Assembly: GCA_965216795.1 (NCBI GenBank)
Contig: OZ244196.1
Location: forward strand, 2,650,368 to 2,714,367
DNA: 64,000 nt
Source: Pseudomonadales bacterium
Lineage (GTDB): Bacteria > Pseudomonadota > Gammaproteobacteria > Pseudomonadales > UBA7434
Direction: 5' to 3'
Shown here piece by piece: positions 29,666-53,254 of the stretch. The notes beneath the pieces were generated by a model, which worked only from the letters and a program-made list of their open reading frames with translations, was not told where the DNA came from and did not search any database. How positions within the stretch are numbered: the stretch's first letter is position 1; the number at the start of each line of letters is the position of its first letter. A program made the translations under genes and the position numbers.

Positions 29666-32335
29666 TCAACTGCCGCTGGCGTTGTTCCAGCGCCTGCGCT
29701 GCAGCCGCAGCGCTGCGAGCACCAGGCCTGCCAGCAAGCTGGCGAGCCCCCAGGGTCCCATCGCGGGGACGTTTTTCCCGGCAAGATCGGGCACAAGCGG
29801 GTTGGAGCCCTGGCTGATTTCCTGGCCATCCGGGGTGCCATCGCCATCGGTGTCAGCATTGAACGGGTCTGTTCCGGCCAGTGCTTCGTCCGTAGCGCTA
29901 AGACCATCATGGTCGTGATCATTAAACAGCGGGTCAAAGCCGTTATCGACCTCAAACTTGTCGAGAATGCCGTCGCCGTCGGTGTCGTTATTGGTTGGGT
30001 CAGTGCCGGCGGTTTGTTCTTCCAGAGACGTGAGCCCGTCGCCGTCGGGGTCTGAGCTGGCGCTGTCGGCAACCAGCGGGTTCAGCCCGAACTGCACTTC
30101 AAACCCGTCTTCCAGCAGGTCGTTATCGGTATCGTTGTCACCCGGGTCAGTGCCGGCGGCCTGCTCCTGAAGGTTATTGAGGCCGTCATTATCGCCATCC
30201 AGTGATTGCTCGCCCGCTGCAAAGGGATCCAGGCTGTTGTCTGTCTCGAACACATTGAGCAGGCCGTCCCCGTCAATATCCATCTCAAAGATGTACGTCG
30301 AACCGGTATCGACGGCGACGCCATCGTCAAAATAGGCACCAACCAGTACCGTGTTTCCTGACAATGCGACGGTCGTGCCGAAGATATCATCAGGTGCAGC
30401 GTCTGTTGCTATGAGCTTTTGATGCTGGGTCCAGGCCTGGCCCTGCTTGATGAACACATAGGCCGAGCCTGCGTCGGTGGCCGCCGCGCCGTCTTGCCAT
30501 GCGCCGAATATCGCCCGGTCGCCATCGACTGCGACGCTTACGCCCAGTTCCGAGCTGGCGATGTCACTGGCCAGTAAAATATCCTGCTGCGTCCAGCTTG
30601 TGCCCGCGCGTTCATAGACATAAACAGCCCCTGCGCGTGGGGTAGCGCCTTCATCCCGTTTGAAAGCACCGACCATGGCGGTATCGCCGCTGACAGAGAC
30701 AGACAGTCCGAATAGATTGCCCGCAGCAGCATCGGAGGCGACCAGTTTTTGCTGCTCTGTCCAGGTCGCCAGGCTATTGGTAAAGACGTAAGCAGAACCC
30801 ACCAGGTCGCCGGTTTGGTGAGCACCCACGATAATCGTGTCGGCGTTTATAGAGACTGCGACGCCAAACAGGTCCTGCACAGCGCCATCACTTGCCGTGA
30901 GTATCTGTTGTTCGGACCAGCTGACCCCCGCGCGGGTAAAGACATAGGCCGCGCCGGTATCCGAAGCGGTGCTATCTTCGAATACCGCGCCCGCGACAAC
31001 GGTATCGCCCTCTAATGCGACTGCGCCTGCAAAATTGTCACCCGCGCCTGCATTGCTTGCGGTCAGCTTGGCTTGCTGCGTCCACACCCCCGCGTTGCGC
31101 ACAAACACGTAGGCAGCGCCAGAATCCGTGCCATCGTCGTCGTCTTTTGGCGCGCCAACGACAATCGTATCGCCACTAATATCGACGGCGGTGCCAAAGT
31201 TGTCATCAGCAGCAGCGTCACTGGCCACGAGTTTTGCCTGTTCGACCCAGGTGCCACCGCTGCGAACATAGACGTATGCCGCGCCTGAACCGGCGGCGAC
31301 ACCGTCTTCTTGCCAGGCGCCCACGACTACAGTGTCGCCGTCCATACGAACCTGGGTGCCAAACTGGTCTTCGAATGCTGCGTCACTGGCGACCAGTTTC
31401 TGTTGCAGCGGCGTGTCGTTCGGGTCGAGTGGGTCGGCGCCAAAGCTGACCTCGTTGCCGTCGGTTGTGCCGTCGCTGTCGGTATCAGGGTTTCGAGGGT
31501 CGGTCCCTGCCGATTGCTCCTGCAGGTTATTCAGGCCGTCGCCATCCGTATCCAGTAGCGCTTCGCCCGCTGCCCAGGGCAGAAAACCGTTGCTGAGTTC
31601 GAAGTCATCGAACAGGCCGTCTGCATCCGCGTCACTGCTTCCGCCTGCTGAGACAAAATAGTTATCGAAAGTCGTCTCTGCACTGGCAGACAGTGTTGTT
31701 GATAGTGCGATGACCGCGCCCAGTGGGTCAGATGACAGCAGGGCGTTGGTTGCAGACAGCGTTTCAAGAAGGACCGGGCTGCTACCGACAGGCAGTTCAT
31801 AGAGCCGGGCCTCCAGCTCGTCAATGCCGGCGCCGCTCCTTCGCAAAACAAGACGATATTGATTGCCAGCGTTGAGTGAGACCGTACCGGTGTCCAGCGT
31901 TGTGCCAAACGCATAGGTTGAGCCCGACTCGTGCACCAGCAGGAAAAACGTGCCGAACACCGTTGCGCGGTAATTCGCGTTGCCGGCGGCATTTGCCAGC
32001 GCCAGGCTGGTTGCAGAATTGCTACCCCAGTCGGTGAAATCGACCGAAGCGGTTGCCGTGTTGTAATTGCTGGCGGTGCCACGCGCATAAGCACTGTAGG
32101 GTGCCGAGCCGCCGGTGACACTCAGGCGGTAGCGAAATTCGCCCGCGTTATTCGGGTCGGCCGGGTAATCAATGGTGGTGGTGCCACTGGCCGCGTTGGT
32201 TTCAGTCCAGTTTGTTACAGGGCTTGTGCCGCTGTCGAAGTTTTCGTACTGCTGGGCAAGGGTGGGTAGCGACAGGCTGGCAAGAAGACTGGCGGCAAGC
32301 CATCGGGTAAAGCAGTAGCGCATTGAGATTCTCAC
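29666..32335 (-). CDS. Large exported FG-GAP beta-propeller / thrombospondin-type-3 Ca-binding repeat protein with an IPTL/PEP-CTERM-like anchor
   Basis: 889 aa. Signal peptide; repeated ~55-aa units (L.ASD.A..D.FG..V...GDT..VGA...D....SGAAYVF); DTDGDGL.N..E...GTDP repeats on both sides; C-terminus [27 protein letters not shown]. Confidence 0.8.
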
Positions 32336-37829: not shown

Positions 37830-38330
37830 ATAAGGTCAGCCATAAGGCGACGAATAACCTTGAGTCGTCGTTTTACGATTGGTTGAAGCGAGAGGTTCAT
37901 TCGCGTGAGTGCGCCTGTCGGCCACGCGATGGATGCCTTGTGCCTTACGAGCGTTCCATTTGATAGCCTGGCATTGTCGTTACCCACAGCGACGGCTGTC
38001 TGACCTCGGCAGGAAATGCGGTTCGAACGCGCAGGCGTTCGCGCAAGCCACTCAACACGCTACAGAGTGTTGTTCGTGGCTCCGCCAAGGCGGTTGGTAT
38101 TGGACTTCAGGAAAGGAGACAAAATGGATACAACTGGATTCCAATCTTGATCTAAGGATAGACCCGGGTGCGGGTTTATCCAATCGCAAAAGGCGGCGAT
38201 CGTGAGTCTCTGGATGACCGAAGGAGCAAATTCAGGGAGGCGGCCGACCTGAATTGCAAAGACTTGCTGGCCTTGCGCGTCTTCGGGGCAGGGCATATGT
38301 CATGCCCGGGTATTGGACGGGTAATCGGTA

Positions 38331-38369
38331 AGGTGCATTTGGGGTTTGGCCTGACCGGACCCCAAATGC
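38331..38369 (-). terminator. 13-bp-stem hairpin just downstream of DUF3604 gene 1
   Basis: gtgcatttggggt-ttggcctgaccgg-accccaaatgcac, 15 nt after the stop at 38384. No strong U-tract. Confidence 0.45.
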
Positions 38370-38383
38370 ACCCGAAGCATGGA

Positions 38384-40336
38384 TCAGTTTGGATCAAACC
38401 AGATAGGCGAGGTATAGGCACGTTCCTGGCCAAACTTGGGTGACTGTTCTGGCGCGGCTTCACCGAAGTGTTTCTCGTCAATGGTAGTCCATCGCGGTGT
38501 AGGAATCTCGAGTACCCTTGCGTAGTAAAACGCGCGAAGGTTTGGGTCAAAATCAGGGTCACGCCACACCACGCTCAGTGACGTGTCACCAATGGTGTTG
38601 GTATAACTGGCCGATGCGACATCGACGGTATTGCCCACCGGCTTGACCTTGTTCCGTTTGATTTTGCGACCGTCAGAAGCTGCGACGTTGTATACCTGCT
38701 CCTGGGTGTTGCCTTCGGCATCGACCCAGCCCTTGATGATCTGGATGCGATCGAGATTGGCGCCGATCGGGTCTTTCAGTGCTGAGACTATAAACGTGGG
38801 TGCCTTGTCGCCGCCCGGTGACTGGAGGGTTCCCCCCATGGGCACGCCATTGCGATAGGCATGGGTAACATAATCGTGGCGATCGACCGTGCTGTGGTCA
38901 TAGTCCCAGCCACCAAAAAAGCGCACCGTCATGCGTGGCCCGGTAGTCGCGTAGACTTCTTTGCGCTGCATCGCATCAAACAGCGCCTTGCGGGTGTTCT
39001 CGCGAGCCCAGACCGCTGCGTAGCCCGAAGATGCAGTCTCCCAGTGATGAACACTGATGCCAGAACCCGCATCGTCTTCAAAAAAGCTCTTATGCGCTCG
39101 CCCGGGCATGGGCTCGACCGACGTCATTTTGCCGAAGAAGTTATCTTCATCGCTGGTGGCAAGGCCGGTGTGCGAGTCGGTGCTGCCGATCATGCCGAAC
39201 TTGTAGGGGTTAACCCCGATTTGTTCTTCGAGCGCCAATCCATTTTTGAGCGCAGATCGCGCGTACTCAAACTCGAGCATGTTGTCTTCTTTTGCGGCCA
39301 GGAAAGACAGGTTGCTCATATCCCAGGTTTCATAATCGGCAAACTCGTCGCTGGGCGATAAAACCGGGTGTGCCTCGCCATCGCCCTTGATCTGGGTCAC
39401 CTCAATAATGGGCTCGTATTTCACGCGCAATGCGGCTTGCTCGGCGGTCAGGGGCTCGCCGGAAAAGGTGGTTTCGGCAAACATCAGGCCGTTGCTGACG
39501 TTGCCGTTGTGCGGAATCGACAGAACCCTGCCGCCGGTTGTGGATTCATAATTGGCCAGATATGCCCAGAGATCCTCCGGGTTGCCGCTATCCATTGATG
39601 AAAAGGGTACAACCTGTCCGGTTGTTTGCGCATCGTCGGCAAACAGCACATTGCGGTGCAGGTTGTTACCGCCCGGCATCGATGTGTATTCATAGCCAAT
39701 AAACGCCGTAAATGTGCCTGGCCGGTTATAGGCATCGGCCGTAGCGCCGACTTGCTTCCAGACAGACTCGACCACCGGGGCCGGTACCTCAAGGCCCTGC
39801 AGGGAGCGGATATGCTCAACGGTGATCCAGGAGCTCCCCTGGGTATAAATCTCGGGGTTTTCAGCGGTTGTTGCGCCCATGGACATGAGGCCGAACTCCA
39901 TCACAACGAGTTGGTGCTTTCCCTCGGCTACGTATTTGGCCCAGCGTTTGCCCAGGTTGGTCTCCGCGATATCGGGTGAGCCGGCAAATACCTTGGGGAA
40001 AATGCCCATAAACTCGGCGTGGTCCGACACCATCAAAAAGTCCAGTGGCCTTGCGAGTTTGGCCTTGACGCCCGTCTGGGAGGTGACCGTTTCGCCCATC
40101 GCAAAGCGATACGCATCTGCTGGCGTAATCGTGCGGTTGCCGAAGGTAAAAGCATCCGGAGACTGGTTGGTATGCAGGTGGGTATCGCCCCAAAAAACCT
40201 GGGCCGGAAAATCGTTGGCAACCGGCGGTGAGTATTCATGTTCTTTGGCCTGTGAGCCAGCCGTGGCAAGCACCAGGGCTGTAGAACACAGGAAGCTGCA
40301 AATTACTTTGATCGAACGCGCGCGCATATTAGACAT
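38384..40336 (-). CDS. Exported DUF3604 family protein (paralogue 1)
   Basis: 650 aa. Signal peptide; FWGDTHLHT metal-type motif; conserved C-terminus WRDPDFDP...YYARVLEIPTPRW...SPIW. Confidence 0.8.
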   Translation of the reverse strand: MSNMRARSIKVICSFLCSTALVLATAGSQAKEHEYSPPVANDFPAQVFWGDTHLHTNQSPDAFTFGNRTITPADAYRFAMGETVTSQTGVKAKLARPLDFLMVSDHAEFMGIFPKVFAGSPDIAETNLGKRWAKYVAEGKHQLVVMEFGLMSMGATTAENPEIYTQGSSWITVEHIRSLQGLEVPAPVVESVWKQVGATADAYNRPGTFTAFIGYEYTSMPGGNNLHRNVLFADDAQTTGQVVPFSSMDSGNPEDLWAYLANYESTTGGRVLSIPHNGNVSNGLMFAETTFSGEPLTAEQAALRVKYEPIIEVTQIKGDGEAHPVLSPSDEFADYETWDMSNLSFLAAKEDNMLEFEYARSALKNGLALEEQIGVNPYKFGMIGSTDSHTGLATSDEDNFFGKMTSVEPMPGRAHKSFFEDDAGSGISVHHWETASSGYAAVWARENTRKALFDAMQRKEVYATTGPRMTVRFFGGWDYDHSTVDRHDYVTHAYRNGVPMGGTLQSPGGDKAPTFIVSALKDPIGANLDRIQIIKGWVDAEGNTQEQVYNVAASDGRKIKRNKVKPVGNTVDVASASYTNTIGDTSLSVVWRDPDFDPNLRAFYYARVLEIPTPRWTTIDEKHFGEAAPEQSPKFGQERAYTSPIWFDPN

Positions 40337-40596: not shown

Positions 40597-42441
40597 ATGC
40601 GAACGCCGACTGGAACGCCAACAAAAGCCAAAAAATGCTACGCACGTTCATTGGAATACTCCGCTCTTATTTTTACCACGTTACTGGTTAGCGGCGCGAG
40701 CATCGCGCTAGACACCGATGGCGATGGGCTTTCGAATACCGTCGAAACCAACACGGGCACCTTTGTTTCAGCTTCCGACACCGGCAGTGATCCGGTGGTT
40801 GCAGACACCGATATCGATGATTTTAATGACGGCATTGAGGTGTCATTGGGCACCGACCCGAATTCCGCACTGAATAGCCCGCGTGAAACGCACCTTGAGC
40901 CAGCTTACCCCGAAGTCTTTGGCCGCTTTGGTTTTAGCGTCGCGGTCGATGTCGACACGTCCGGCGCTTGCCAGATAAGGTTGGGCGCTAGTAGCGGTGT
41001 TGCCCAGATTTTTACAAGAGTAGGGGCGCAATGGTTGGAGCAAGGCCAGCTATTCACTGGCGGACTGGCCACCGGCCTGTTTTGCTGGAGTATCGCTTTG
41101 TCGGGTGACAGTGCCGCGATTGGCGCTCCGGGCGATGCGACCGGAGGCGTGGTTTATATTTTTGACCGGACGGGTTCCACCTGGCCATTCACCTCGACTC
41201 CTCTCGTTCCCGGCGATTCAGCAGGTGGCGATAGCTTTGGCTATGCCGTTGACATCGATGGTGACACGCTGTTCGTGGGCGCTCCGTTTGATGATGACAA
41301 TGGCAGCGCATCGGGCTCGGTCTACGTTTTCACGCGAACCGCCGGGGTTTGGAGCGAGCAAGCCAAGATTACCGCTGGCGATGGCACTGCCAACGACAAT
41401 TTTGGTCAAGACCTTGAATTCTCGGCAGGTTCGCTGATTGTCGGTGCGCCTGGTGATTCTGATAGTGCCAGCAATGCTGGGTCAGCTTACATTTTCACCG
41501 GCTCGGGGAGCAGCTGGACACAGCAAGCGAAACTTTCAGCGAGCACGCCCGCTGCCGATGATGCCTTTGGCACTGCAGTCAGTATTTCAAGCGATAGCGT
41601 ACTGATCGGCGCTCCTGGAGATGCTGCGAATGGCGCAGGTGCAGGTGCTGCCTATGTGTTCACGGGCTCCGGTTCATCCTGGGCCCAGCAGCAAAAATTG
41701 TTGCCCGGCGACGGTGCCAGTAATGATGTGTTTGGCGATGATGTTGCGCTCTGGGGAGAGGTTGCCGTCGTTAGTGCACCCTTTGATGATGGCCCCACCG
41801 ATTCAGGTTCAGCCTATGTTTTTTTACGCTCTGGCACAGCGTGGGTGCAAATTGATAAGTTCAAGCCCGCCGCTAGTGGGCAATCCGACAATTTTGGAGA
41901 GCGAATCGCTATTGATAATGGCACTGTAGCGCTTGGCGCTCCTACGCGGCAAGGTGCAACCGGCGCAGCTTATATCGTTGATCTGGACATCGATAAAGAT
42001 GGTTTGCTTAACGCGGTAGAGAGTGGCACTGGCATATTCGTATCGCAATTCGACACGGGGACTGACCGCCTCGACGCCGACAGCGATGAAGACAACGTCA
42101 TCGACGGCGATGAAACGCAAATTCATGGCACTGACCCGAATGCCAATGATACCGATGGGGACGGCATCCTTGATGATGCCGAGATTGCAATTGGTTGGAA
42201 CCCTTTGTCAGATGACATTGATAACGATGGCCTGACCGATGCTGAAGAGTCAGGCCTTGGTACTGACCCGCTACTTGCTGACACCGACATGGATGGCATT
42301 AGCGATGGTGATGAAATCGCGAGCGGCACGGACCCACTCATAGTTGATAACGGTACAAAGAGTGTTCCAGCAATGGGTGCGATGGGTTTATTTGCATTGA
42401 TGTTGGGGTTATTGTTTCTCGGCGTGAGGGTGAAGGCTTGA
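40597..42441 (+). CDS. Exported FG-GAP beta-propeller / TSP3-repeat protein with an IPTL/PEP-CTERM-like anchor (paralogue of 29666-32335)
   Basis: 614 aa with the same repeat types (GD...FG.AV.I.GDT..VGAP.DD....SGS.YVF; DTDGDG). C-terminus [26 protein letters not shown]. Confidence 0.8.
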
Positions 42442-43276: not shown

Positions 43277-44002
43277 TCAAGAGGTTGCAGGCCTGCCGGC
43301 GCTTGCTTTGTGTCCCAGAAGTAGAAGCCATATACCCAGTACCAGATGAGTAAAAAAAGGCATAGGCACGTTCACAGGTACGGGAAGGATTTGTGCAGTC
43401 GCCTGGGTGCCCTCGGGGGTAAATGAGCGACCCCAGCCAAACCAGCTCAAGACGTTGTTTGGAACGGGTACAGCAGATCCAAAAACGGGGGCGACATCTG
43501 GATCTTGCAGAGTAAACGTGGAACCATCGAAGTGAATGCTTGAAGCAAACCAGATCGACTCGTTATTGTAAGTGAAAAAAGCGACATAGCGCAGAACATC
43601 CCACTGATTCACGCCGGCGTTGTCGCGAATGGAAAACTCGCTGTGTGACAGGTGCTGCGGCTCTCCATCAATCGTTAGCGATGTCAGCACTATCTCATAG
43701 TCATAGTGAAATGACGGCCCGCCCGTATTGGAAGAGCTGCCCTCGATCTCGGTTTCAGCCACAATCTCTAGTGAATCAACGCTCACTGAAATAGTAAAGG
43801 GTATCGAATGAGCTGGGTCGGAACTGTGGCCCGCGGGCGGCTCAGGCGTAAAAATGCCATCGTTGACATACCCGCTCCATTCGTATTGCAAAAGTCCAGC
43901 GCATGCGATGTGGCTGGCAAAGGTGAAGAGGAGCAGTACAGCTACATTTCTAAGCATGTTGCCTATTGCTGTTCCCAGCGATACAGCTTTTATTATTCTC
44001 AT
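43277..44002 (-). CDS. Hypothetical exported protein with a PEP-CTERM-like anchor
   Basis: Start probably ATG 44002 (AGGGAG RBS). The C-terminus is LPVPVNVPMPFFTHLVLGIWLLLLGHK: motif, then a hydrophobic helix. Confidence 0.5.
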   Translation of the reverse strand: MRIIKAVSLGTAIGNMLRNVAVLLLFTFASHIACAGLLQYEWSGYVNDGIFTPEPPAGHSSDPAHSIPFTISVSVDSLEIVAETEIEGSSSNTGGPSFHYDYEIVLTSLTIDGEPQHLSHSEFSIRDNAGVNQWDVLRYVAFFTYNNESIWFASSIHFDGSTFTLQDPDVAPVFGSAVPVPNNVLSWFGWGRSFTPEGTQATAQILPVPVNVPMPFFTHLVLGIWLLLLGHKASAGRPATS

Positions 44003-44152
44003 GGCCATCTCCCTGTTCATTCACCTGGTGAGTGATCCAGGATTCAAACTAAACGAACGTTACCAGGCTTTCAAGTGACTTGGCCATTGGTGTGCGGCGC
44101 TTTCCCGTGTGGTTCCTGATTGGCACATAGGCAGCACTTGTAGTCTGCCTGA

Positions 44153-44453
44153 TTCCAGCCGCAATAACCCCATGAATAGTAAAGAGATTGGTGGGTATCA
44201 GGACTTGCTACGTGCCCTGGGGGTAATCCTGGGACCTGCCGATGACTACTTGGCCCATGGCTATGAGTCCAGCGAACAATACGTATCAGTCCCCATAAGC
44301 CTAAGCAATGTGAGAGGTTATCCGAAGGGCTTAATTGAGGCTTACCCCGACCGAAACATATCCGAACCTGCTGCCTGAGATTTCCTGGCCCGAGTGTTGC
44401 TGCGCTATGGACATCAAGGTCGGGGTGGGGTGGGCTGCCGAACCTGGGCCGAA
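44153..44453 (-). repeat. attP-like repeat unit, copy A (degenerate tRNA 3'-half fragment 44189-44269 plus L and R arms)
   Basis: L arm ttccagccgcaataaccccatgaatagtaaagagat. The tRNA-like core carries two 18-nt insertions. The R arm is colinear with copies C and D, including CCGAAM pairs at 44351/44362 and 44438/44449. Confidence 0.8.
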
Positions 44454-44680
44454 CCGCGCAATCAGGATAGCATGTCGTCATCTCAACTATCGGAAGTGGC
44501 CAGGCGCACGTTAGGTAACCCGAGTCTTCAGACAGAATACTCCCCGTTTCCAGTGCGCTCACCAAAACATCATGGGGGTCACACGGCTGTGGCCGCAGCT
44601 AACTGGACTATCTGAAAAGACAGTTGATTTTCTTCGCTAAAGAAGAACAATGTAGGCTTTCGCTCGCCACGAGAGAAACT

Positions 44681-46603
44681 ATGCAAAACAACCAGCTATG
44701 CGCTGTGTGGAGCCCCAATTCCCCCTCAAGGGACGATTTCGTTCTTTTTACTGCAATGATTGTTATATCACTCAGTGTTCTACTTACTGGGTGCGAGAGG
44801 CTTGATGATCCGTCGGTCCAGCCAGGTTTCGTTCAGGGCCAGGCTGTCAAATCTATGCAGCGTACGCCCGCACCTAAAAATACACAGAGAAATCTGTACT
44901 TTGGCGATTTGCATATACATACCAGCCTGTCAACAGACGCCTATGTTTTTGGCGTTCGCTCGCAGCCTGAAGACGTCTACACCTTTGCAAAGGGCGGCGT
45001 CATTGAGCATGCAGTGGGCTATCCTATCCAGATCGACCGTCCTCTGGATTTCGCTGCGGTAACTGATCACGCCGAGTACCTGGGTCAGGCTCGTTTGGCG
45101 GGCCTTGATATACCTACGAACATGCACCCGCTGCGCGATGTGCTTGCTGGCGGCAATGTCATTAGCGTGACAAAGCAGTGGTTGATTTCCAGTGCATTTG
45201 TGCTTCGAAAAGGTGCCGGCTATGGCGTCGACGAAATTGATCTGTCTGTGAATCGCGCTGCATGGCAGCAAGTTATTAACGCCGCAGAGGCGGCTAATGT
45301 ACCGGGAGAATTTAGCGCATTTATCGGCTATGAATGGACGTCGTTTGTCGATAACAATCCGTCGATTCACATTCATCGTAACGTTATATACCGTGGCAGT
45401 GATGTGTCTGATCTGCCGTATAGTGCACTTGATAGCAACCGGCCAGAAGATCTATGGAGGTTTCTTGAGGGTGAGCAGCTCGCTGGAAAAGAAGCGATCG
45501 CTATTTCACATAATGCGAACATTAGCGCCGGCAATATGTACTCGGTCGTGGATAGTGACGGGGAGCCGTTAACCGACGCATATGCACGATTGAGGAATCG
45601 CTATGAGCCAATTAGCGAGATCCTGCAGATCAAGGGCGCCTCAGAGACGCACCCGATGATGTCGAATCTCGATGAGTTCGCAAGCTTTGAGCTGCTGTCC
45701 AACAGTCCACCGGAAGACCAGCTGCAAGGCTCATACGCACGCAGCGGCTTGCGTCTTGGTCTGGAAACTTCAGCCCGGCAGGGATTTAACCCGTATCAAT
45801 TCGGTGTGATAGGGTCCAGTGACAGCCATAATGCCAGCTCTCCTTCTCAGGAGAATCGTTATCATGGCAAGCTGCCCGTGCTGGATGGAACCGCTGGCTT
45901 GCGCACCAACAAAGCACTGCTAATACCTGAGTTGATCAACCCCGCTATGCGCTGGGGATCGGGAGGGCTGGCAGCAGTTTGGGCGGAAGAGAACACGCGC
46001 GGTGCTGTGTTTGATGCGCTACGCCGCCGTGAGTGCTATGCAACCTCGGGTCCCAGAATCAGTGTGAGGCTATTTGGTGGCTGGCAGTATACCCAGGCCA
46101 TGCTTGACACTGGGAATGTTATTGAACAAGCCTACAAGCACGGTGTTCCAATGGGTGGGCAGCTGGGCCCAGCACCCAAAGACGGTGCCCCGACCTTTAT
46201 GATTATCGCGGCAAAAGACCCTGAAGGCGCAAACCTTGACCGTGTGCAGATTATTAAAGCGTGGGTCGATTCTGTCGGTGAGAGTCACGAAAAAGTTTAC
46301 GACGTGGCCGCAGCCGGTGGGCGGACAGTGAGCAAAGAGACAGGAAAACTAGAGCCTGTGGGTAACACGGTTGACGCAGCTGAGGCTAGCTACAGTAATA
46401 CAATCGGTGCGGCTTCGCTGGCGGCGATTTGGCGAGACCCTGATTTCGATGTGTCCAGTGAAGCTGTTTACTATGCGCGGGTCATCGAAATTCCCACGCC
46501 ACGATGGTCGACATACGATGCTAAATTGTTAGGCGATGAACCTATGAATCCAGCGTGGATTCAGGAGCGTGCCATTACATCGGCGATCTGGTATTCGCCT
46601 TGA
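44681..46603 (+). CDS. Exported DUF3604 family protein (paralogue 2; lipoprotein-like)
   Basis: YFGDLHIHT motif and C-terminus WRDPDFD...YYARVIEIPTPRW...SAIWYSP. Possible lipobox LLTGC. Start uncertain: TTG 44624, ATG 44681 or ATG 44756. Confidence 0.8.
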   Translation: MQNNQLCAVWSPNSPSRDDFVLFTAMIVISLSVLLTGCERLDDPSVQPGFVQGQAVKSMQRTPAPKNTQRNLYFGDLHIHTSLSTDAYVFGVRSQPEDVYTFAKGGVIEHAVGYPIQIDRPLDFAAVTDHAEYLGQARLAGLDIPTNMHPLRDVLAGGNVISVTKQWLISSAFVLRKGAGYGVDEIDLSVNRAAWQQVINAAEAANVPGEFSAFIGYEWTSFVDNNPSIHIHRNVIYRGSDVSDLPYSALDSNRPEDLWRFLEGEQLAGKEAIAISHNANISAGNMYSVVDSDGEPLTDAYARLRNRYEPISEILQIKGASETHPMMSNLDEFASFELLSNSPPEDQLQGSYARSGLRLGLETSARQGFNPYQFGVIGSSDSHNASSPSQENRYHGKLPVLDGTAGLRTNKALLIPELINPAMRWGSGGLAAVWAEENTRGAVFDALRRRECYATSGPRISVRLFGGWQYTQAMLDTGNVIEQAYKHGVPMGGQLGPAPKDGAPTFMIIAAKDPEGANLDRVQIIKAWVDSVGESHEKVYDVAAAGGRTVSKETGKLEPVGNTVDAAEASYSNTIGAASLAAIWRDPDFDVSSEAVYYARVIEIPTPRWSTYDAKLLGDEPMNPAWIQERAITSAIWYSP

Positions 46604-46622
46604 GGTCAAAAGTTGCCATCGA

Positions 46623-46722
46623 CTCCAGCCGCAATGACCCTATGAATAGTAAAGAGAATGGTGGGCCCACCAGGACTTGCTACGTGCCCTCGGGGTAAAC
46701 CTGGGACCTGCCGATTATGAGT
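46623..46722 (-). repeat. attP-like repeat unit, copy B (L arm + tRNA 3'-half fragment; R arm missing)
   Basis: ctccagccgcaatgaccctatgaatagtaaagagaa, then the tRNA 3' half with the 18-nt T-loop insertion (46680-46697). Homology stops abruptly after ...gattatgagt. Confidence 0.85.
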
Positions 46723-46932
46723 AATTAGCCTACCGTATTTACTGAGATTGATCTACGTTGATTTAGATCGATATTGGAATCAATTCAATCACTTGGTCTT
46801 TTACCTGGGTCTATCCAGGTTGATACAGATTGATTTCATCTGCTTACATAGCGCTTACACGCATTTGATAATATGTCTGCCCAATTTGATATACGCCAAC
46901 CGGTACTTGAACTATAATTCTTGGTGTGATAT

Positions 46933-49245
46933 ATGCTGGGTGCGCGCGCTACTCTGCTCAGCCATAACAAAAAGGAGATAATCTCGCTCAGGATTATGCC
47001 GATGCCCCAGATCTTAAGAAAAGACCTTTATCTTAAATTTAGACTTCAGCGCGTCTTGGTGTCAGGAGTGTTAAAAGTTCTAGCAGGCTTATATTGTCTT
47101 GCACTCCAGCACGCAGCCATAGCGGCTGCGCTCGACCCCGACGACTTTACCTCACTGGGGACGCTTAACCTGGCGAGTGGCGATTACACTTTTGATACCA
47201 CGGCGATGACGATCGTTGAAAACAGCGCGCCAGGCACCGTACTGTTTACCGGTGTTGAGGACGACCAGAACGGTCAGGCCGACAGCTTTGCGGGTGGTAG
47301 CGATACAGTAGGTGTTAATGGCATTCCACATATCGCAGTCTTTACCTTTGATGACATCAACATTGATGGGACCAACAGTATTACCATCACCGGTAATCGA
47401 GCTATTGCGCTGTTATCAAAGAGCAATTTCTATCTGGATGAAACGCTATCGGTGGATGCCGTGCCGGCCCCTGCCCCAGATGCGCCGGAAGCGCAGTTTG
47501 GTGGCAAAGCTGGCCCTGGCGGCTTTGACGGCGGTACGCCCGGCATCAACAATGGCGATGGTGAGGGGCCAGGTGGCGCGCTTGGCAATGATGGTTTTAC
47601 TGGCGCACACGGCGCAAGTGGAGGATTCGGTGGTGATGGGGTTGGCCCCTTGCCAGGCCTATTAGGCATGTCCTACGGTGATCTGCTGCAAGCACTGCAA
47701 GGTGGAAGTGGCGGCGGTGATAGCGATGATTTTTTGACCCCTGAAAATCGAGGCCCCGGTGGTGGTGGTGGTGGCGCGATCATGCTGGTTGCCAGCCAGG
47801 CAATAACCATCGACAGCAATGGCGTTGTCAGCGCACAAGGAGCGGATGGTTACCAGCGAGAACCCCCCTCCATACCGGGGTTTACAGGATTATACGGGGG
47901 TGGCGGTAGTGGTGGTGGGATTATCCTGTCGGCACTAAACGTAGTCATTAACGGCCAGCTATTAGCAAAAGGGCTCGACGGCAGCGGTACTTACACTGGC
48001 GGTGGTGGCCGTGTGTTGGTCGCAGGCTATAACAGCTTCCTGTTCGGTAGCACGCCTGACGTCAACAGTTTTATCGCCAATATCGACGTCGACCCTCCTT
48101 TTGCATCCGCTGAGGGCGGATGGATTTCTGTGGTGCCTCGCACAACACTCGTCTCATTTGGCGAGTCGCTGGCACTTAACAACGCAACCATTCAGATTCA
48201 GGGCAACATCGGAGCTCCCGGTGTCGAATTCATACCAGGCAACCTTGTTGCAACAGGCGAGCTTACCGTGCCTGCTGGAGGCACGAGCTACGCGTTTGAC
48301 ATTAGCCTTACCGGTCCAACCGAAACCACCGTTATTAACGGCAACGATCCGCTACAAATCCAGACGTCGCTATCAGGTTCCGGCACGGTCAACGTACCAC
48401 TGGTGATCGACGCCGATGCCGAGCTGAATATGGTTAATGATGAGCTCACCTTTCAGGGCGACGGCATTGCCAACGACGACGGGCTGGTAAACAACGGCAC
48501 CATGAACCTGATCAACGCAATTATCAATGGTGATGTACGCTCACCGGCTGGGTCACAGATAAACGTTGCAGGTAGTGCGACATTTAACGGCCTGTTTTCA
48601 GGTGCCGGTACATTTTCGGGCACTAGCAACCTGGTCACCTTTAACGGCGGCTACTCACCCGGTGATAGCCCTGCGGCTATTAACTTTGGTGGCGATGTGT
48701 CGTTGAGTTCAGGGAACACGCTGCTGATGGAGATCTTCGGCAGCGTTGCGGGCAGTGGTTACGACCAGCTCACTGTTGCCGGTAACCTGGCAATGAATGG
48801 CGTGATCGATTTATTTGTTGATCCGCTGTTAACACTCAACGCGGGCGACAGCTTTACTTTGCTCAACTGGAGCTCGGTCGCAGGCGAGTTTGCATCGGTG
48901 CTTGGCATTCAACAAGCAAATGATCTGGACATCGGTATTCGTTATAACGCCGGCAATATGGTGGCTAAGGTTGTGCCGCGTGGTGACGTGAATGATGACG
49001 GCGTTGTTAACGGTGATGACCTGGCGATTATTGCCAGCAATGCAGGCGTGAACACAAGCAGCTACTTTAGCGGCGACGTAAACGGCGATGGCGTGGTCGA
49101 TAATTCCAGCAATTCTGGCTCAGACCGATCGTTAGTCGAGGCGGCTATTCTCAATGCGAATACCCAAACTGTACCTCTGCCTTTCTGGCTGCCATTGATA
49201 CTGTTGATGGGCGCTACCATTACGTATAGGTTGAGTGCCCGGTGA
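46933..49245 (+). CDS. Large exported glycine-rich (beta-helix-like) protein with dockerin-like Ca-binding repeats and a VPLP-type C-terminal anchor
   Basis: 770 aa. Gly-rich blocks (GGFGGDG, GPGGGGGGAIML, GGGGSGGGIIL). GDVNDDGVVNGDDL and GDVNGDGVVDN dockerin/EF-hand-like repeats. C-terminus TVPLPFWLPLILLMGATITYRLSAR. Start uncertain (46933 or 46996). Confidence 0.65.
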   Translation: MLGARATLLSHNKKEIISLRIMPMPQILRKDLYLKFRLQRVLVSGVLKVLAGLYCLALQHAAIAAALDPDDFTSLGTLNLASGDYTFDTTAMTIVENSAPGTVLFTGVEDDQNGQADSFAGGSDTVGVNGIPHIAVFTFDDINIDGTNSITITGNRAIALLSKSNFYLDETLSVDAVPAPAPDAPEAQFGGKAGPGGFDGGTPGINNGDGEGPGGALGNDGFTGAHGASGGFGGDGVGPLPGLLGMSYGDLLQALQGGSGGGDSDDFLTPENRGPGGGGGGAIMLVASQAITIDSNGVVSAQGADGYQREPPSIPGFTGLYGGGGSGGGIILSALNVVINGQLLAKGLDGSGTYTGGGGRVLVAGYNSFLFGSTPDVNSFIANIDVDPPFASAEGGWISVVPRTTLVSFGESLALNNATIQIQGNIGAPGVEFIPGNLVATGELTVPAGGTSYAFDISLTGPTETTVINGNDPLQIQTSLSGSGTVNVPLVIDADAELNMVNDELTFQGDGIANDDGLVNNGTMNLINAIINGDVRSPAGSQINVAGSATFNGLFSGAGTFSGTSNLVTFNGGYSPGDSPAAINFGGDVSLSSGNTLLMEIFGSVAGSGYDQLTVAGNLAMNGVIDLFVDPLLTLNAGDSFTLLNWSSVAGEFASVLGIQQANDLDIGIRYNAGNMVAKVVPRGDVNDDGVVNGDDLAIIASNAGVNTSSYFSGDVNGDGVVDNSSNSGSDRSLVEAAILNANTQTVPLPFWLPLILLMGATITYRLSAR

Positions 49246-49340
49246 AGCCGACAGGTTTGTTGGCGCTCGAGCTGAGCGGGCGATAAAAGTAATCAGTTCA
49301 GGACAGTCTTGGCCGTATTGATCCCTGAGGGTACGCCAGA

Positions 49341-49575
49341 TTGAAAAATGAATGGTGGGCCCACCAGGACTTGCTACGTGCCCTCGGGGTAAACCTGGGA
49401 CCTGCCGATTATGAGTCCAGCGAACAATACGTGCCCATCTCCATAAGTCTAAGAAGTGGGAGGGGTTATCGGCGGGGTATCTCTGGGGCTTTCTTCGACC
49501 GAACCATATCCGAACCTGTCGCCTTGAGAGTCGCGTGCCTGAGTGTCACCCCGCTGAGGGCATGTGGCCGAAGGC
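49341..49575 (-). repeat. attP-like repeat unit, copy C (truncated L arm + tRNA 3'-half fragment 49353-49417 + R arm)
   Basis: tRNA 3' half with the 18-nt insertion (49374-49391). The R arm is colinear with A and D, with a ~20-nt internal deletion near its end. Confidence 0.85.
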
Positions 49576-49790
49576 TCTCTCATTCTCCTAAGTTGTTGAT
49601 ATCCTGGGCTAATTAACTCCTTCCCCATCCCCTGAGATTGCCTCAGAAGCAGCATTGGCTGCGTCCTGCAGCGTGCCAGTGGACAGGTGAGTCGACTGCT
49701 GTACGCCTGTTGGCTACATATTGACGGCTAGCTGCGAATTGAAGATACTGGTTGCACCCCTTGGCTCCGAATGACAACGGAGCACCTCCC

Positions 49791-50504
49791 ATGCCTGCCA
49801 CTAACGTGCCTGCGTCCATTACGGTTGTTAGACAGGCGAGCCCGATTTTCTTGAGCGCCCAGCTGCTGCGCAGGGACTTCCTGGCGATTTTGCTGCTTGT
49901 GAATGTCTCGATGGCGCAGGCGTATGTTGAAGCGCCGCGCGTGATGTCTGCCCAATTGACAACGTATCAGTCCAGTATCAGTTATCTGATACACAATGAT
50001 TCGGATTGGCTTCTGGACCAGCTCGGTATGCAGTTTGCTGGCGTCCTGCCACTGGGCACCTATGCACTCGATTTATCTTATGATTGGGATTCGTTGCGCG
50101 ATATCTATGATGATGATCCCACATTCGATGAGATCATGGGCCCCCAGTGGGATCTTTTCGTCAGGTTTTGGTTCGATTCTCGTGATGATCCTCTCTATCC
50201 CGGTGAGTCTTTCACCCTGACGATCGATTTCAATAGCGCATTGCTGGCTGCAGAATATGGTGTTACGGATATCAGGCAGCTGAACACTGCTTTCTACTCC
50301 GGAGTGCTGGGCGGTTCTAACGCAGAGCATGGCGTTGAAACCCCTGTCGAGTTGCTGGAGGTGCCGGTGTTCCCAGAGCGTATCGTCGTCCCTCTGCCGG
50401 GGTCTTTCGGATTGCTACTTGCCCCGATGTGTCTTTTGGTTTACCTGCGGCGCCCATGGAGTCGGGCGCACCGCTCACAGAGTCGGCTGCTCCAGCCGCA
50501 ATAA
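49791..50504 (+). CDS. Hypothetical exported protein with a VPLP-type (PEP-CTERM-like) anchor
   Basis: Start at ATG 49791 (GGAG RBS). C-terminus VVPLPGSFGLLLAPMCLLVYLRRPW. The stop codon lies inside the L arm of repeat D. Confidence 0.55.
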   Translation: MPATNVPASITVVRQASPIFLSAQLLRRDFLAILLLVNVSMAQAYVEAPRVMSAQLTTYQSSISYLIHNDSDWLLDQLGMQFAGVLPLGTYALDLSYDWDSLRDIYDDDPTFDEIMGPQWDLFVRFWFDSRDDPLYPGESFTLTIDFNSALLAAEYGVTDIRQLNTAFYSGVLGGSNAEHGVETPVELLEVPVFPERIVVPLPGSFGLLLAPMCLLVYLRRPWSRAHRSQSRLLQPQ

Positions 50505-50757
50505 CCCTATGAATAGCAAAGAGATTGGTGGGCCCACCAGGACTTGAACCTGGGACCTGCCGATTATGAGTCCAGCGAACAATAAGAACCCGTCTTCATA
50601 AGTCCAAGAAATGGGAGGGGTTATCCCGGAGCCCTCATTAGGGTTCACGCCGACCGAACCATATCCGAACCTGTCGCCTTGAAAAACGCTCGCCCGAGTG
50701 TCACTGGGCTATGGGCATCAAGGCTGGGGAGGGGAGGGTTGCCGAAACTGGACCGAA
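50489..50757 (-). repeat. attP-like repeat unit, copy D (L arm + exact tRNA 3' 47 nt at 50526-50572 + full R arm)
   Basis: The 47-nt core is identical to the tRNA gene 3' end, with no insertion. CCGAAM pairs at 50654/50665 and 50742/50753. Confidence 0.9.
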
Positions 50758-50793
50758 ATTCGAGAGGTATTCTGTGGATAGGGCCATGTTAGA

Positions 50794-51432
50794 TTATTTC
50801 TTTTCTGCAGAAAGTATGGATACAACCGTCTCAATCATTACAGAAATAAATGTGTCTCGATACCTTTTGTCGTTTTCAGGCGACTCTTGAATTAGTGCAC
50901 AGTAGTCGGCAAGGTTGGTGACTACCAAATTTCGAATGGTGCGATACCGAATAGTTTTTTCAGTCTCTGGTACCCCTTCTAAGCTGTTTGATAGCAGCGC
51001 ACTTAAATCTGATAAAGATGAGTAGGAGCGTTGGTCTTCAGATTCTACCGGATTCATCTGGTGCCCATCCATGAGCGCGAGTATCCGCAAGTAGGCTCTT
51101 CCATCATCTTTGTTGTCCAGTTCACCTATCAGCGGTAATAAAAGTACCTTGGCCGTTTCTTCCAGGCTAGGTGTTGGGCCGAAGACATTCAACAGTTTCT
51201 GCCGGCGTTGCTCTATACCTGATCTGTGCTTATCAAAAATGGCCTGTAAGAGGCCGGCCTTGTTCTCGAAGTGGTAATTGAGTGCGGACGCATTGCGCTG
51301 ACCAGAGGCTTTCACAATTTCATTCATTGACACGGCGTCAATGCCACGTGCAGCCATTAGCTTCATTGCGGTACGCAGAATTTTGGCCTTGGTCTGTCTG
51401 GCGGCTTCTTCCTTTTTGCAATTCATTGGCAT
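50794..51432 (-). CDS. TetR family transcriptional regulator (low-GC islet)
   Basis: 212 aa with a TetR HTH (KILRTAMKLMAARGIDAVSMNEIVKASGQRNASALNYHF). Confidence 0.8.
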   Translation of the reverse strand: MPMNCKKEEAARQTKAKILRTAMKLMAARGIDAVSMNEIVKASGQRNASALNYHFENKAGLLQAIFDKHRSGIEQRRQKLLNVFGPTPSLEETAKVLLLPLIGELDNKDDGRAYLRILALMDGHQMNPVESEDQRSYSSLSDLSALLSNSLEGVPETEKTIRYRTIRNLVVTNLADYCALIQESPENDKRYRDTFISVMIETVVSILSAEKK

Positions 51433-51468
51433 ACCAGGTCCGATTACATTAAATCCAGCTTTATTGAT

Positions 51469-51515
51469 AATGAAGTCTCATTATAATAACCTACCAAAAT
51501 TAATGAGATCTCATT
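51469..51515. promoter_or_regulatory. Two copies of a 14-bp palindrome (candidate TetR operators) in the divergent promoter
   Basis: aatgaagtctcatt (51469-51482) and the perfect palindrome aatgagatctcatt (51502-51515), 33 bp apart, between the TetR and MBL genes. Confidence 0.5.
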
Positions 51516-51632
51516 AGAATATTCATGGGTAGATGGTGGCGTAAGCCATTGAAATAATAAGGTTTATCGGTTTTGGGCCTGGGTTCATATCCTGAAGCCA
51601 CACAGTTGACGACATATATTGAGGCAATAGTT

Positions 51633-53015
51633 ATGCGGCAGTTAGTGCAATTCACAGCGGTAATTTTTGGTTCTCTGCTGGTAATCAATGCTATGGCTGG
51701 TTCGGGCGTCGATGTCCATTCCGAAGAGTACCAGAATGTGCGTGTTCCCAAGGACTTCAATGGCCGCGCTAGTGACATCATGCTCTATAAGCCGAAGTTG
51801 GAAAAGATTAGCGATGAAGTCTATGTCGCGTCTGGTACGGGTAATGCGTTTCTGGTGAAAACGCCGGAAGGGAATGTTATTTTTGATACAGGCGTCCCCT
51901 GGCAAGGGGAGGCGCTTAGGGAACTTCTGCTTTTCGTTGGTCATGAAAAAACGACACATATTATTGTTTCACATGCGCACGGTGATCATATGGGCGGGCT
52001 CACGGCCTGGCAGCAGGAGATCAATGATGGCGCTGAAATTATCGCGCATAGTCGTTATCCATATACCAACAAGATATACGGGGATACCGATGTTTATCTA
52101 TGGCAACAACGAACGGCATCTATTTACCCATCACCGGGGACGGGGGCTGCAGAAATGGTTCGACAGGCTAGGGCGATCGAGCCGACCCGTTTGGTTTATC
52201 CAGACCATGACTACAGCTTTACTGTTGGCGGTGTAGAGTTTGTTGTCATCGCTATGCAGGGAGGCGCAGAAGGTGAAGATAACCTGGTACTTTGGTTGCC
52301 GGAGCAGGAAGTTGCTTTTACTGGCGATTTGTTCGGCCCCCTGTATCCTATGGTGCCAAACTTGTACACAGTGCGGGGTGAAAAGCTGAGAGATCCGCTG
52401 GCCTACATTGACGCGCTTGATCGAATGATAGAGCTTGAGCCTAGTATCATGCTCCCGAGCCATTTCGGTGCTGTTAAAGGGAAAAACTATATCCACAAAT
52501 CGCTGACTGTGACTCGTGACGGGACAGAATATGTCTACAAAGAAACTGTTAAGGGGATGAACGAAGGTAAGAGTGTCTACGAGTTGATGGAATCTGTACG
52601 GCTTCCTGAATCACTTGAAATCAGCCAGGGACATGGAAAGACGTCCTGGAATGTTAGGGCAATTTGGGAATTGCTAGCGGGTTGGTTTTACTTTGATACC
52701 GTTGCTGACCTGTACTCTGTTCCTGTCAGTGCTGTTTACGCCGACATTGTTGAGCTTGTAGATGGCCCAGACAAGCTGATTGCTAGCGCTGAAAGATATG
52801 CTTCAGAAGGCGACAACCTTAAGGCAATCAGGCTATTGGATATAGCTCAGGGCGCCGGACAGGAAACTACGGATGCCATCAAATTACGTGTAAAACTTTA
52901 CTCTGCACTTATTGAGGAGTCTAAAGATACGCACAGCAATGTCAGTTTGGATGATATTCTCGAGGCGGCGTTGAGGTCATCAAATGCTGAATTGAAAAAA
53001 CGTGCTGACAAGTAA
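51633..53015 (+). CDS. Exported MBL-fold metallo-hydrolase, alkyl/aryl-sulfatase-like
   Basis: Start at ATG 51633 (GAGG RBS; signal MRQLVQFTAVIFGSLLVINAMA). HAHGDHMGG metallo-beta-lactamase motif. Helical C-terminal domain reminiscent of the alkyl-sulfatase dimerisation region. Confidence 0.65.
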   Translation: MRQLVQFTAVIFGSLLVINAMAGSGVDVHSEEYQNVRVPKDFNGRASDIMLYKPKLEKISDEVYVASGTGNAFLVKTPEGNVIFDTGVPWQGEALRELLLFVGHEKTTHIIVSHAHGDHMGGLTAWQQEINDGAEIIAHSRYPYTNKIYGDTDVYLWQQRTASIYPSPGTGAAEMVRQARAIEPTRLVYPDHDYSFTVGGVEFVVIAMQGGAEGEDNLVLWLPEQEVAFTGDLFGPLYPMVPNLYTVRGEKLRDPLAYIDALDRMIELEPSIMLPSHFGAVKGKNYIHKSLTVTRDGTEYVYKETVKGMNEGKSVYELMESVRLPESLEISQGHGKTSWNVRAIWELLAGWFYFDTVADLYSVPVSAVYADIVELVDGPDKLIASAERYASEGDNLKAIRLLDIAQGAGQETTDAIKLRVKLYSALIEESKDTHSNVSLDDILEAALRSSNAELKKRADK

Positions 53016-53177
53016 TTGTGGGTCTTTGATGCTTGTTGTCTACACTGCGGTTCGAGAATGCGCGTCAAAACGATGCCTATGGGCATAAGTCACGATAGCG
53101 TCGCAGCTATGGTGCCAGAATGCACACTCAAAAGTATGGTCCTTTTATTTCTATAACCTTAAGAAATCAAAGAAGAT

Positions 53178-53254
53178 TGGTGGGCCCACCAGGACTTGAA
53201 CCTGGGACCTGCCGATTATGAGTCGGATGCTCTAACCAACTGAGCTATGGGCCC
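53178..53254 (-). tRNA. tRNA with anticodon CAU (Met or, more likely, lysidine-type Ile2)
   Basis: 77-nt cloverleaf read by hand: GGGCCCA-TA-GCTC-AGTTGGTTA-GAGC-A-TCCGA-CTCATAA-TCGGC-AGGTC-CCAGG-TTCAAGT-CCTGG-TGGGCCC-ACCA. C4 and C5 in the acceptor stem match the remembered E. coli ileX. Confidence 0.9.

Follow-up and report, generated by a model that had tools for sequence, protein, structure and literature searches.

Integrase-less islets stacked beside a tRNA-Met gene in a Pseudomonadales bacterium: a probable genomic island grown by tandem accretion

The stretch considered here, a 64-kb window of a Pseudomonadales genome (positions 2,650,368 to 2,714,367 of contig OZ244196.1, assembly GCA_965216795.1), contains a tRNA-Met gene beside which parts of that gene recur in a row of small gene islets. 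Coordinates without a locus name are those of the window. ARAGORN and Rfam find one tRNA gene in the 64 kb, an intact tRNA-Met(CAU) (anticodon CAT in DNA letters) at 53178–53254 on the minus strand (Rfam tRNA model, 73 bits), which is the putative integration target (attB side); yqeY, dnaG, rpoD and a cysK-type PALP gene lie upstream of it (Pfam). The last 47 nt of the tRNA (tRNA positions 30–76), which read TGGTGGGCCCACCAGGACTTGAACCTGGGACCTGCCGATTATGAGTC as the reverse complement on the plus strand, are present in four direct copies at lower coordinates, named cores D, C, B and A in order from the tRNA. They partition a low-GC stretch of 9 kb into four islets (E1–E4) with one or two genes each. 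The GC content is 0.466 in E1 (50791–53140), 0.53–0.54 in E2–E4, and 0.59 and 0.62 in the flanks. The locus thus combines an intact tRNA at one end and direct repeats of its 3′ part beyond with foreign GC content and a synteny break at the tRNA (see below), as in a tRNA-integrated island. A sequence-only reading of the window had placed the repeats at 44153–50757; the repeats proved real, but the array runs on to the tRNA at 53254.

All four cores lie on the plus strand, and they differ in how far they have departed from the tRNA. Core D (50526–50572) has 0 changes relative to the 47 nt of the tRNA 3′ part. Core C (49353–49417) carries one 18-nt insertion in the T-loop (49374–49391), and core B (46659–46722) carries an 18-nt T-loop insertion (46680–46697) and one terminal mismatch. 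Core A (44189–44269) has a T-loop insertion (44208–44225), an insertion in the anticodon loop (44244–44261), a 2-nt deletion and three substitutions. Core decay therefore grows with distance from the tRNA (D < C < B < A), a gradient that is fitted by newcomers integrating beside the tRNA. The outer junctions appear to be undergoing inactivation by insertions and deletions.

The same 18-nt T-loop insertion is common to cores A, B and C, and cores B and C are 95–100% identical over 77 nt, including the shared insertion and a few flanking bases. The second 18-nt insertion of core A lies between tRNA positions 37 and 38; compared by eye, the two insertions of this core are alike at about 11/17 positions, with the loose pattern CC..GGGC.A.GTAG. 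The window has no second site for either insertion sequence, and IMG/VR gave no match to the T-loop insertion taken together with its flanks. The two insertions occupy the two tRNA loops that integrases use for crossover. The 3′ end of the tRNA is itself a perfect 14-nt palindrome, TGGTGGGCCCACCA (53178–53191), which recurs in cores B, C and D and was flagged on the minus strand by a terminator scan; it could serve as a symmetric core site for a recombinase.

Conservation extends beyond the tRNA-derived cores on both sides, as the sequence-only reading had seen. The L arm, which begins with CTCCAGCCGCAATAACCCTATGAATAG, occurs three times in the window at up to 3 mismatches (0.00 expected), at junctions A, B and D. 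The R arm, represented by the 22-mer GACCGAACCATATCCGAACCTG (3 occurrences in the window, 0.00 expected), is a non-coding segment of about 190–215 nt at junctions A, C and D. No indel separates the three R arms over their first 108 aligned columns, so that two variable spacers of 12 and 25 nt, which had been described as fixed in length, are indeed so. All 14 of columns 1–14 are invariant, against 4/12 in the 12-nt spacer (columns 15–26); invariant columns then number 23/29 in columns 27–55, 7/25 in the 25-nt spacer (columns 56–80) and 22/23 in columns 81–103. This clustering of conserved columns exceeds chance in permutation tests (p = 0.007 for the two longest runs, p = 0.018 for transitions). 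The R arms are pairwise 73–77% identical over the first 150 columns and roughly equidistant, and they are thus not recent local duplicates.

The R arms share pairs of CCGAAM hexamers 11 bp apart, of which there are five (44351/62, 44438/49, 49499/510, 50654/65 and 50742/53), all within R arms; the window contains no further same-strand pair with this spacing. CCGAAM on its own shows no enrichment in the window (69 copies against 66 expected). Junctions A and D each contain two pairs, as the sequence-only reading had noted, and the two pairs stand 87–88 bp from each other in both. Between the core-adjacent block AGCGAACAATA and the first proximal site, ACCGAACCATA, 9 of 11 positions agree in the alignment, so the motif possibly occurs 5 or 6 times per arm, in a single orientation.

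The junctions, all on the plus strand, are not alike in composition. Junction D (50488–50790) consists of an L arm (50490–50525), the core and an R arm (50573 to about 50790), with a proximal CCGAAC pair at 50654–50670 and a distal CCGAAA pair at 50742–50758, each with 11-bp spacing and the distal one 88 bp from the proximal one. Junction A (44151–44480), the most decayed, has an L arm (44151–44188), the core and an R arm (44270 to about 44480) with both of its pairs (44351/62 and 44438/49). Junction C (49340–49565) has no L arm, and its R arm (49418 to about 49565) contains one CCGAAC pair (49499/49510). Junction B (46621–46900) has an L arm (46621–46658) and the core, followed by another arm (46723 to about 46900, here the B arm) and no R arm. 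Only A and D hold L arm, core and R arm together; the proposal that every junction is a complete module of about 300 bp therefore holds for these two and fails for B and C. The 3′ flank of the tRNA itself (53146–53177, ATAACCTTAAGAAATCAAAGAAGAT, no strand assigned) shows partial homology with the L arm (repeat family D4, 89% across 72 nt with the core counted in).

Each islet runs between two such junctions or, for E1, between junction D and the tRNA. E1 (50573–53145, delimited by Pfam and GC content) comprises the R arm of D, a TetR gene (50794–51432, minus strand, Pfam) and a metallo-β-lactamase (MBL)/alkyl-sulfatase-like gene (51573–53015, plus strand, Pfam). E2 (49418–50525) comprises the R arm of C, a plus-strand gene for an orphan secreted protein of 237–250 amino acids (49752–50504, from its translation) and the L arm of D; searched against 5.8 billion protein clusters, this protein returned only itself, and it has no family match. 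E3 (46723–49352) consists of the B-type arm, a plus-strand gene for a 770-amino-acid secreted repeat protein (46933–49245) and the left flank of C, which is not an L arm. E4 (44270–46658) consists of the R arm of A, a plus-strand DUF3604 gene (44624–46603, Pfam) and the L arm of B; its product is 37–42% identical to two other DUF3604 paralogues in the window. Promoter-like sites are present within the cassettes themselves, and the TetR/MBL pair in one of them is divergent. The islets have att-type sites on both sides and no genes for integration or transfer, as do elements of the cis-mobilizable type (CIMEs).

Several secreted proteins of the cargo and its neighbourhood (43277–44020, 46933–49245 and 49752–50504, also 40597–42441 and 29666–32335) have C-termini like PEP-CTERM-type sorting signals, namely VPLP or VPAMG, a hydrophobic helix and basic residues. 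The window also encodes two FG-GAP/TSP3 paralogues that are 39% identical. The cargo was considered as a source of recombinase and rejected: the proteins of 770, 250 and 247 amino acids are secreted, with sorting-signal-like tails, and have no family match. To the left of the islets, GC content drops below the left-flank value of 0.59 from about 38000 onward. At this edge, behind a DUF3604 gene, lies a non-coding stretch of 550 nt (37830–38384) with a perfect 14-bp hairpin at about 38330–38372. An nhmmer profile of the R arm matches 38313–38375 on the plus strand (E = 0.003), possibly a fifth, badly decayed R-arm relic, given with low confidence; in pairwise alignment to the R arm this segment scores within the range of shuffled sequences. 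The stretch may be the oldest boundary of the island.

What the R arm is can be approached first from what it does not encode. Stops occur in all six frames and tblastn with a tyrosine integrase was empty, so a coding remnant was rejected, and the arm matches no Rfam family at a permissive threshold. A novel structured RNA, in which a tRNA-like or half-tRNA part is continued by an extension of about 190 nt and the spacers act as compensating stems, would account for spacers that vary in sequence at fixed length, and a 7-bp hairpin in the 25-nt spacer of D is, in the alignment, partly kept in A with different bases. This is nevertheless very improbable. Besides the tRNA model, the only Rfam family to appear is Plastid-ycf2, with matches that are below threshold and fall on the tRNA and on core D, on the opposite strand. 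Whether the R arm or the whole unit is folded as RNA or single-stranded DNA, and whichever strand is taken, its predicted free energy is no better than that of dinucleotide shuffles (z from +0.1 to +2.0). The covariation term of RNAalifold is unfavourable (positive) on both strands, with 3–4 compensatory pairs from three sequences, and the copies contain no tRNA 5′ half. Block conservation and fixed spacing in a segment that is non-coding and unstructured fit protein-binding sites on duplex DNA instead.

A second arm of the same design is seen at junction B and in a relative. Relatives were compared as CysK-anchored loci from GTDB representatives and metagenome assemblies, about 110 fetched loci being searched. 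Over 169 nt, the B arm (46723 to about 46900) shares 81% identity (nhmmer E = 1e-17) with positions 17880–18048 of locus L085, a TARA Oceans scaffold from another genus, where it directly precedes a tRNA 3′ fragment. That fragment carries the T-stem sequence of L085’s own tRNA, not that of the window. In L085, the arm and the 3′ fragment mark the far end of an integrase-less 6.5-kb island with polyamine genes that lies at the same tRNA. Two clusters of ATCAA direct repeats, spaced at exactly 10 bp, and a GTAAGC pair with 11-bp spacing characterize the B arm in both genomes. R arm and B arm are unrelated in sequence and share one layout, with direct-repeat clusters at 10–11 bp. In IMG/VR, patterns drawn from the B arm give either 0 matches or chance matches only.

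That the B arm recurs where another island ends, with the same layout, favours arm-type protein-binding sites over an RNA or a coding function. The proposal of arm-type sites made from the sequence alone is to that extent upheld, and the phased CCGAAM and ATCAA repeats are most likely binding sites for a recombinase or a directionality factor, as judged from their spacing and position. Repeated short arm motifs at a fixed distance from the core, as found here, are also a property of the attP sites of tyrosine integrases. Around the tRNA of L085, further fragments occur: a 5′ tRNA fragment (tRNA positions 1–60) at 11211–11270, about 100 nt upstream of the intact tRNA (11369–11445); the last 13 nt of the tRNA with flank at 11541–11585, about 95 nt downstream; and the B-type arm with the 3′ fragment at 17880–18077. 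This suggests several nested events at one tRNA.

The repeats might alternatively bind a transcriptional regulator, the R arm being a cis-regulatory operator array for the cargo genes that stands beside tRNA fragments by descent only. Binding sites of the OmpR/PhoB type typically consist of direct repeats with 11-bp spacing, as seen in the R arm, and at junctions A (DUF3604) and C (the 250-amino-acid protein) this arm precedes a gene on the plus strand. At junction D, however, the R arm is bordered by the 3′ end of a convergently oriented gene, tetR, and the analogous B arm of L085 follows the 3′ end of an arginase gene, which together make a promoter role unlikely. The arm is, moreover, always fused to the tRNA core at a fixed position, and the paralogous DUF3604 and FG-GAP genes elsewhere in the window have no repeat pairs of this kind in front of them. 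An operator array is therefore quite unlikely.

The tRNA-Met gene lies in a conserved setting that breaks at the tRNA. The window’s species is absent among GTDB representatives, where the best CysK match is 84%, and the order rpsU-yqeY-dnaG-rpoD-cysK-tRNA-Met is conserved across Cellvibrionales. Beyond the tRNA, the tested open reading frames of the window have no match in the relatives compared, and even a close relative with a 98% identical CysK (contigs L083 and L084, 86–87% identical in DNA) has unrelated DNA immediately past the tRNA. In loci L088 and L112, a large serine recombinase directly follows the tRNA; in L003 (13368–13443) and L100–L103, a full-length, degenerate pseudo-tRNA lies 3.5 kb downstream of the true one; and L085 and L086, as well as L005 and L016, have 5′ tRNA fragments. 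The synteny break, together with recombinases, pseudo-tRNAs and tRNA fragments in relatives, identifies this tRNA as an integration hot spot in Cellvibrionales.

Some of these loci have details of their own. The CysK of L088 and L112 is 87% identical, and their recombinase (L088 6852–8444) has Resolvase, Recombinase and Zn_ribbon_recom domains in two open reading frames; its 3′ end overlaps the 3′ half of the tRNA on the opposite strand. In L003 and L100–L103, the tRNA and the pseudo-tRNA bracket a single TSP3-type secreted protein of 830 amino acids, and this full-length duplication is of another kind than the 3′-fragment repeats of the window. In L023 (11131–11599), a 118-nt unit that begins inside the tRNA T-loop stands four times in tandem (95% matches), each unit opening with the last 22 nt of the tRNA.

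The region from 44.15 to 53.25 kb is best read as a genomic island whose elements accreted in tandem behind the tRNA-Met(CAU) gene, at its 3′ end, a CIME-like structure built by successive site-specific integrations, to which we assign a probability of about 0.6. An incoming circular element would carry an attP made of a P arm, the last 47 nt of the tRNA (anticodon loop to CCA) and a P′ arm. A recombinase, most likely a tyrosine integrase with its crossover in the region of the anticodon loop, would insert the element into the tRNA gene; integration would rebuild the tRNA from the element’s copy and push the old 3′ part, with all older elements, outward. Identity to the tRNA begins at position 30, which fits a crossover in the anticodon loop (predicted segment CTCATAA), reportedly a known crossover sublocation of tyrosine integrases. 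We infer the recombinase, its crossover position and the binding of protein to the arms from the architecture of the repeats.

Under such stacking, each internal junction, read in the orientation of the tRNA, would be a chimera of the far-end (P) arm of the newer element, the core and the near-end (P′) arm of the older one. The flank at 53146–53177 may then be read as the tRNA-proximal (P′) end of E1. Two types of element are suggested by the junctions. Those of type R (E1, E2 and E4) would end in an L arm and an R arm, and the one of type B (E3) would have the B arm at its far end and, at its near end, the unrelated flank seen at junction C. With two types, it follows that C has no L arm, that B has no R arm and that only A and D look complete. 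The earlier suggestion that the junctions are composite att sites between tandem elements agrees well with this arrangement at a tRNA hot spot. All four islets are without a recombinase, which makes them CIME-like, and the earlier comparison with CIME-type remnants is apt; they could be what remained after the excision of a partner that carried an integrase, or an integrase encoded elsewhere may move them.

Among the main open reading frames of the 64-kb window, none has a Phage_integrase or Resolvase domain (Pfam), and tblastn of the window with the tyrosine integrase of locus L109 gave no remnant (best E 0.78). A site-specific recombinase encoded by the element, as tRNA islands may have, is thus missing from the window, as is the recombinase plus replication module beside a tRNA by which tycheposons are recognized. 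Further copies of the R arm, a search for which the sequence-only reading had proposed, were not found either: exact 20–23-mer scans of GTDB species representatives and IMG/VR, blastn against phage and plasmid collections and nhmmer profiles over the fetched loci gave no match and no second occurrence. Two exact-word matches in JGI metagenomes, with no tRNA nearby, were discarded as chance.

The closest homologue of the E1 MBL (71% amino acid identity) lies in the same TetR–MBL module beside a tyrosine recombinase in L109 (5991–9077); module and E1 are 70% identical in nucleotides across TetR and MBL. The recombinase belongs to a plasmid-borne family, and its nearest plasmid homologue (74% amino acid identity) is on pRR3-57 of Halioglobus pacificus (Halieaceae; L114). 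A motif upstream of the L109 integrase, AAACTGACCGAAATTCGA, matches the distal pair of D at 18/19 positions, with a score within the range of shuffles, and is attributed to chance; it was not found upstream of the 74% identical integrase on the Halioglobus plasmid, and the lead was dropped. The likeness to L109 is treated as suggesting only that the TetR–MBL module travels on mobile DNA.

Several points weigh against successive integration as set out above. The first is that the 18-nt T-loop insertion is present in three cores, and an element carrying it would be unable to restore the tRNA; because such an insertion would break the tRNA, gene conversion or integration at a secondary site must be assumed. 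The CCGAAM pairs both sit on one arm, and the L arm is just about 38 nt long. The R arm was not found again in any collection searched, the scans of large collections being for exact 20–23-mers, and the binding of protein to the CCGAAM and ATCAA repeats is a prediction only. Finally, the window contains neither an integrase nor a remnant of one, and four independent clean losses would be surprising. CIMEs can be mobilized in cis by accretion with an integrase-bearing element (PMC5704250); such mobilization, or the carrying-in of cargo followed by precise excision, would remove the need for four clean losses of an integrase.

The near-identity of cores B and C (95–100%, including the insertion) shows that gene conversion or duplication acts at this locus, and the window has no recombinase. 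The unit might then have been propagated among copies of a repeat that holds the tRNA 3′ part, whether through gene conversion, unequal crossing-over or homologous recombination, the unrelated genes between the copies having been inserted otherwise, with no site-specific recombination at all. Such an origin is unlikely. Near-identity is seen for the cores, whereas the R arms reach only 73–77% and are equidistant from one another, and the repeat begins precisely at the anticodon loop, a classic sublocation of crossover in tRNA genes. The islets are foreign in GC content and unrelated in gene content. In another genus, the B arm lies beside a 3′ fragment of that genome’s own tRNA.

The sequence-only reading had gone further and compared the array with integrons. 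Active integron-like cassettes, each a full attP of about 300 bp with one or two genes and shuffled on a tRNA-derived platform by a chromosomal integrase encoded elsewhere, would explain four consecutive islets of one or two genes without a recombinase of their own. The block conservation of R arms that are about 75% identical overall suggests continued selection on binding sites, and a second arm family of the same layout marks the integrase-less island of L085. The analogy does not hold up, and active cassettes of this kind are improbable. A tRNA gene stands where the head of an integron array has intI, attI and Pc, and no integrase, attI-like platform or common promoter is present in the 64 kb. 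The single-strand hairpins of attC are missing, an attC-like single-stranded DNA fold of unit D reaching z scores of +1.0 and +1.4 against shuffles, with the 14-nt tRNA 3′ end as the sole long palindrome. The cassettes have their own promoter-like sites and in one case a divergent regulator/enzyme pair; neither junction B nor junction C is a complete module, both being hybrids; the distal cores are broken by insertions exactly in the loops where crossover would be expected; and the collections searched yielded no second array and no further R arm.

A related and equally tentative idea, which we regard as improbable, is a trans-acting cassette system of Cellvibrionales in which units of one or two genes with a phased, tRNA-derived attP land at tRNA-Met by means of an integrase encoded elsewhere, two arm families correspond to two recombinases and the loop insertions lock old cassettes in place. 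If true, it would be a functional analogue of integrons on duplex att sites. Taken together, the observation made from the sequence alone is partly confirmed and its interpretation partly supported.

Island growth by accretion at the tRNA remains the preferred reading, and the locus is a further example of this known process; no new class of mobile element is established by it. It displays tRNA-linked growth by stacking at base-level resolution, with an age gradient that can be read in the decay of the cores and hybrid junctions that expose two types of element. Islets that keep both att arms without a recombinase make a case for cargo left behind or moved in trans, as has been proposed for marine bacteria, and the CCGAAM and ATCAA repeats are candidate sites for the cognate recombinases.

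Among known systems, integron arrays resemble the locus in their serial small gene units, mostly in one orientation and separated by repeats like recombination sites. Here, however, intI, attI and Pc are absent, the sites are duplex and tRNA-derived rather than folded attC, the junctions are heterogeneous and the units have promoter-like sites of their own. The attP sites of the lambda and L5 type are alike in that the core is the 3′ part of a tRNA from the anticodon loop onward and in having paired short direct repeats about one helical turn apart; mycobacteriophage L5 has paired arm-type sites, and lambda has the sites P′1–P′3. Unlike those attP sites, the junctions here have both pairs on one arm and no adjacent int or xis, and binding is predicted from the sequence.

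CIMEs and the accretion of islands of the integrative and conjugative element (ICE) and integrative and mobilizable element (IME) types are described at tRNA 3′ ends (Pavlovic 2004; Bellanger 2011; reviewed in PMC5704250). Like CIMEs, the islets are in tandem, bounded by att sites with the 3′ end of the target gene, free of integration and transfer genes and joined by chimeric internal att sites. They differ in that four integrase-less islets of one or two genes stand in a row with no partner ICE or IME visible, and in the long conserved arm (about 200 nt) with phased repeats; a descent from an ICE or IME by deletion would be hypothetical here.

In Dehalococcoides, 15 islands at ssrA are without an integration module, and it has been proposed that these are CIMEs (PMC3146451). 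They, too, stand in tandem behind a single small-RNA gene, with direct repeats of its 3′ end and an extra conserved motif beside the repeat (PMC3146451). Their target is a tmRNA, their repeat is 20 bp long and many of the islands carry a CcrB-like serine recombinase (PMC3146451), whereas the present locus has a 47-nt tRNA repeat, arms like tyrosine-integrase sites and no known integrase.

Another parallel is offered by the genomic islands of Prochlorococcus, in which most DNA has no hallmark genes and has been proposed to be cargo left after precise excision of its carrier (bioRxiv 10.1101/2020.12.28.424599). Unlike the tycheposons, the array described here has no integrase or replication module, belongs to a heterotrophic gammaproteobacterium of the Cellvibrionales and has kept long conserved arms. 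It shares with the tRNA islands of Prochlorococcus a marine setting, a position abutting a tRNA gene (tRNA-Met(CAU) among them), scattered partial tRNAs and the displacement of older elements by newcomers (bioRxiv 10.1101/2020.12.28.424599).

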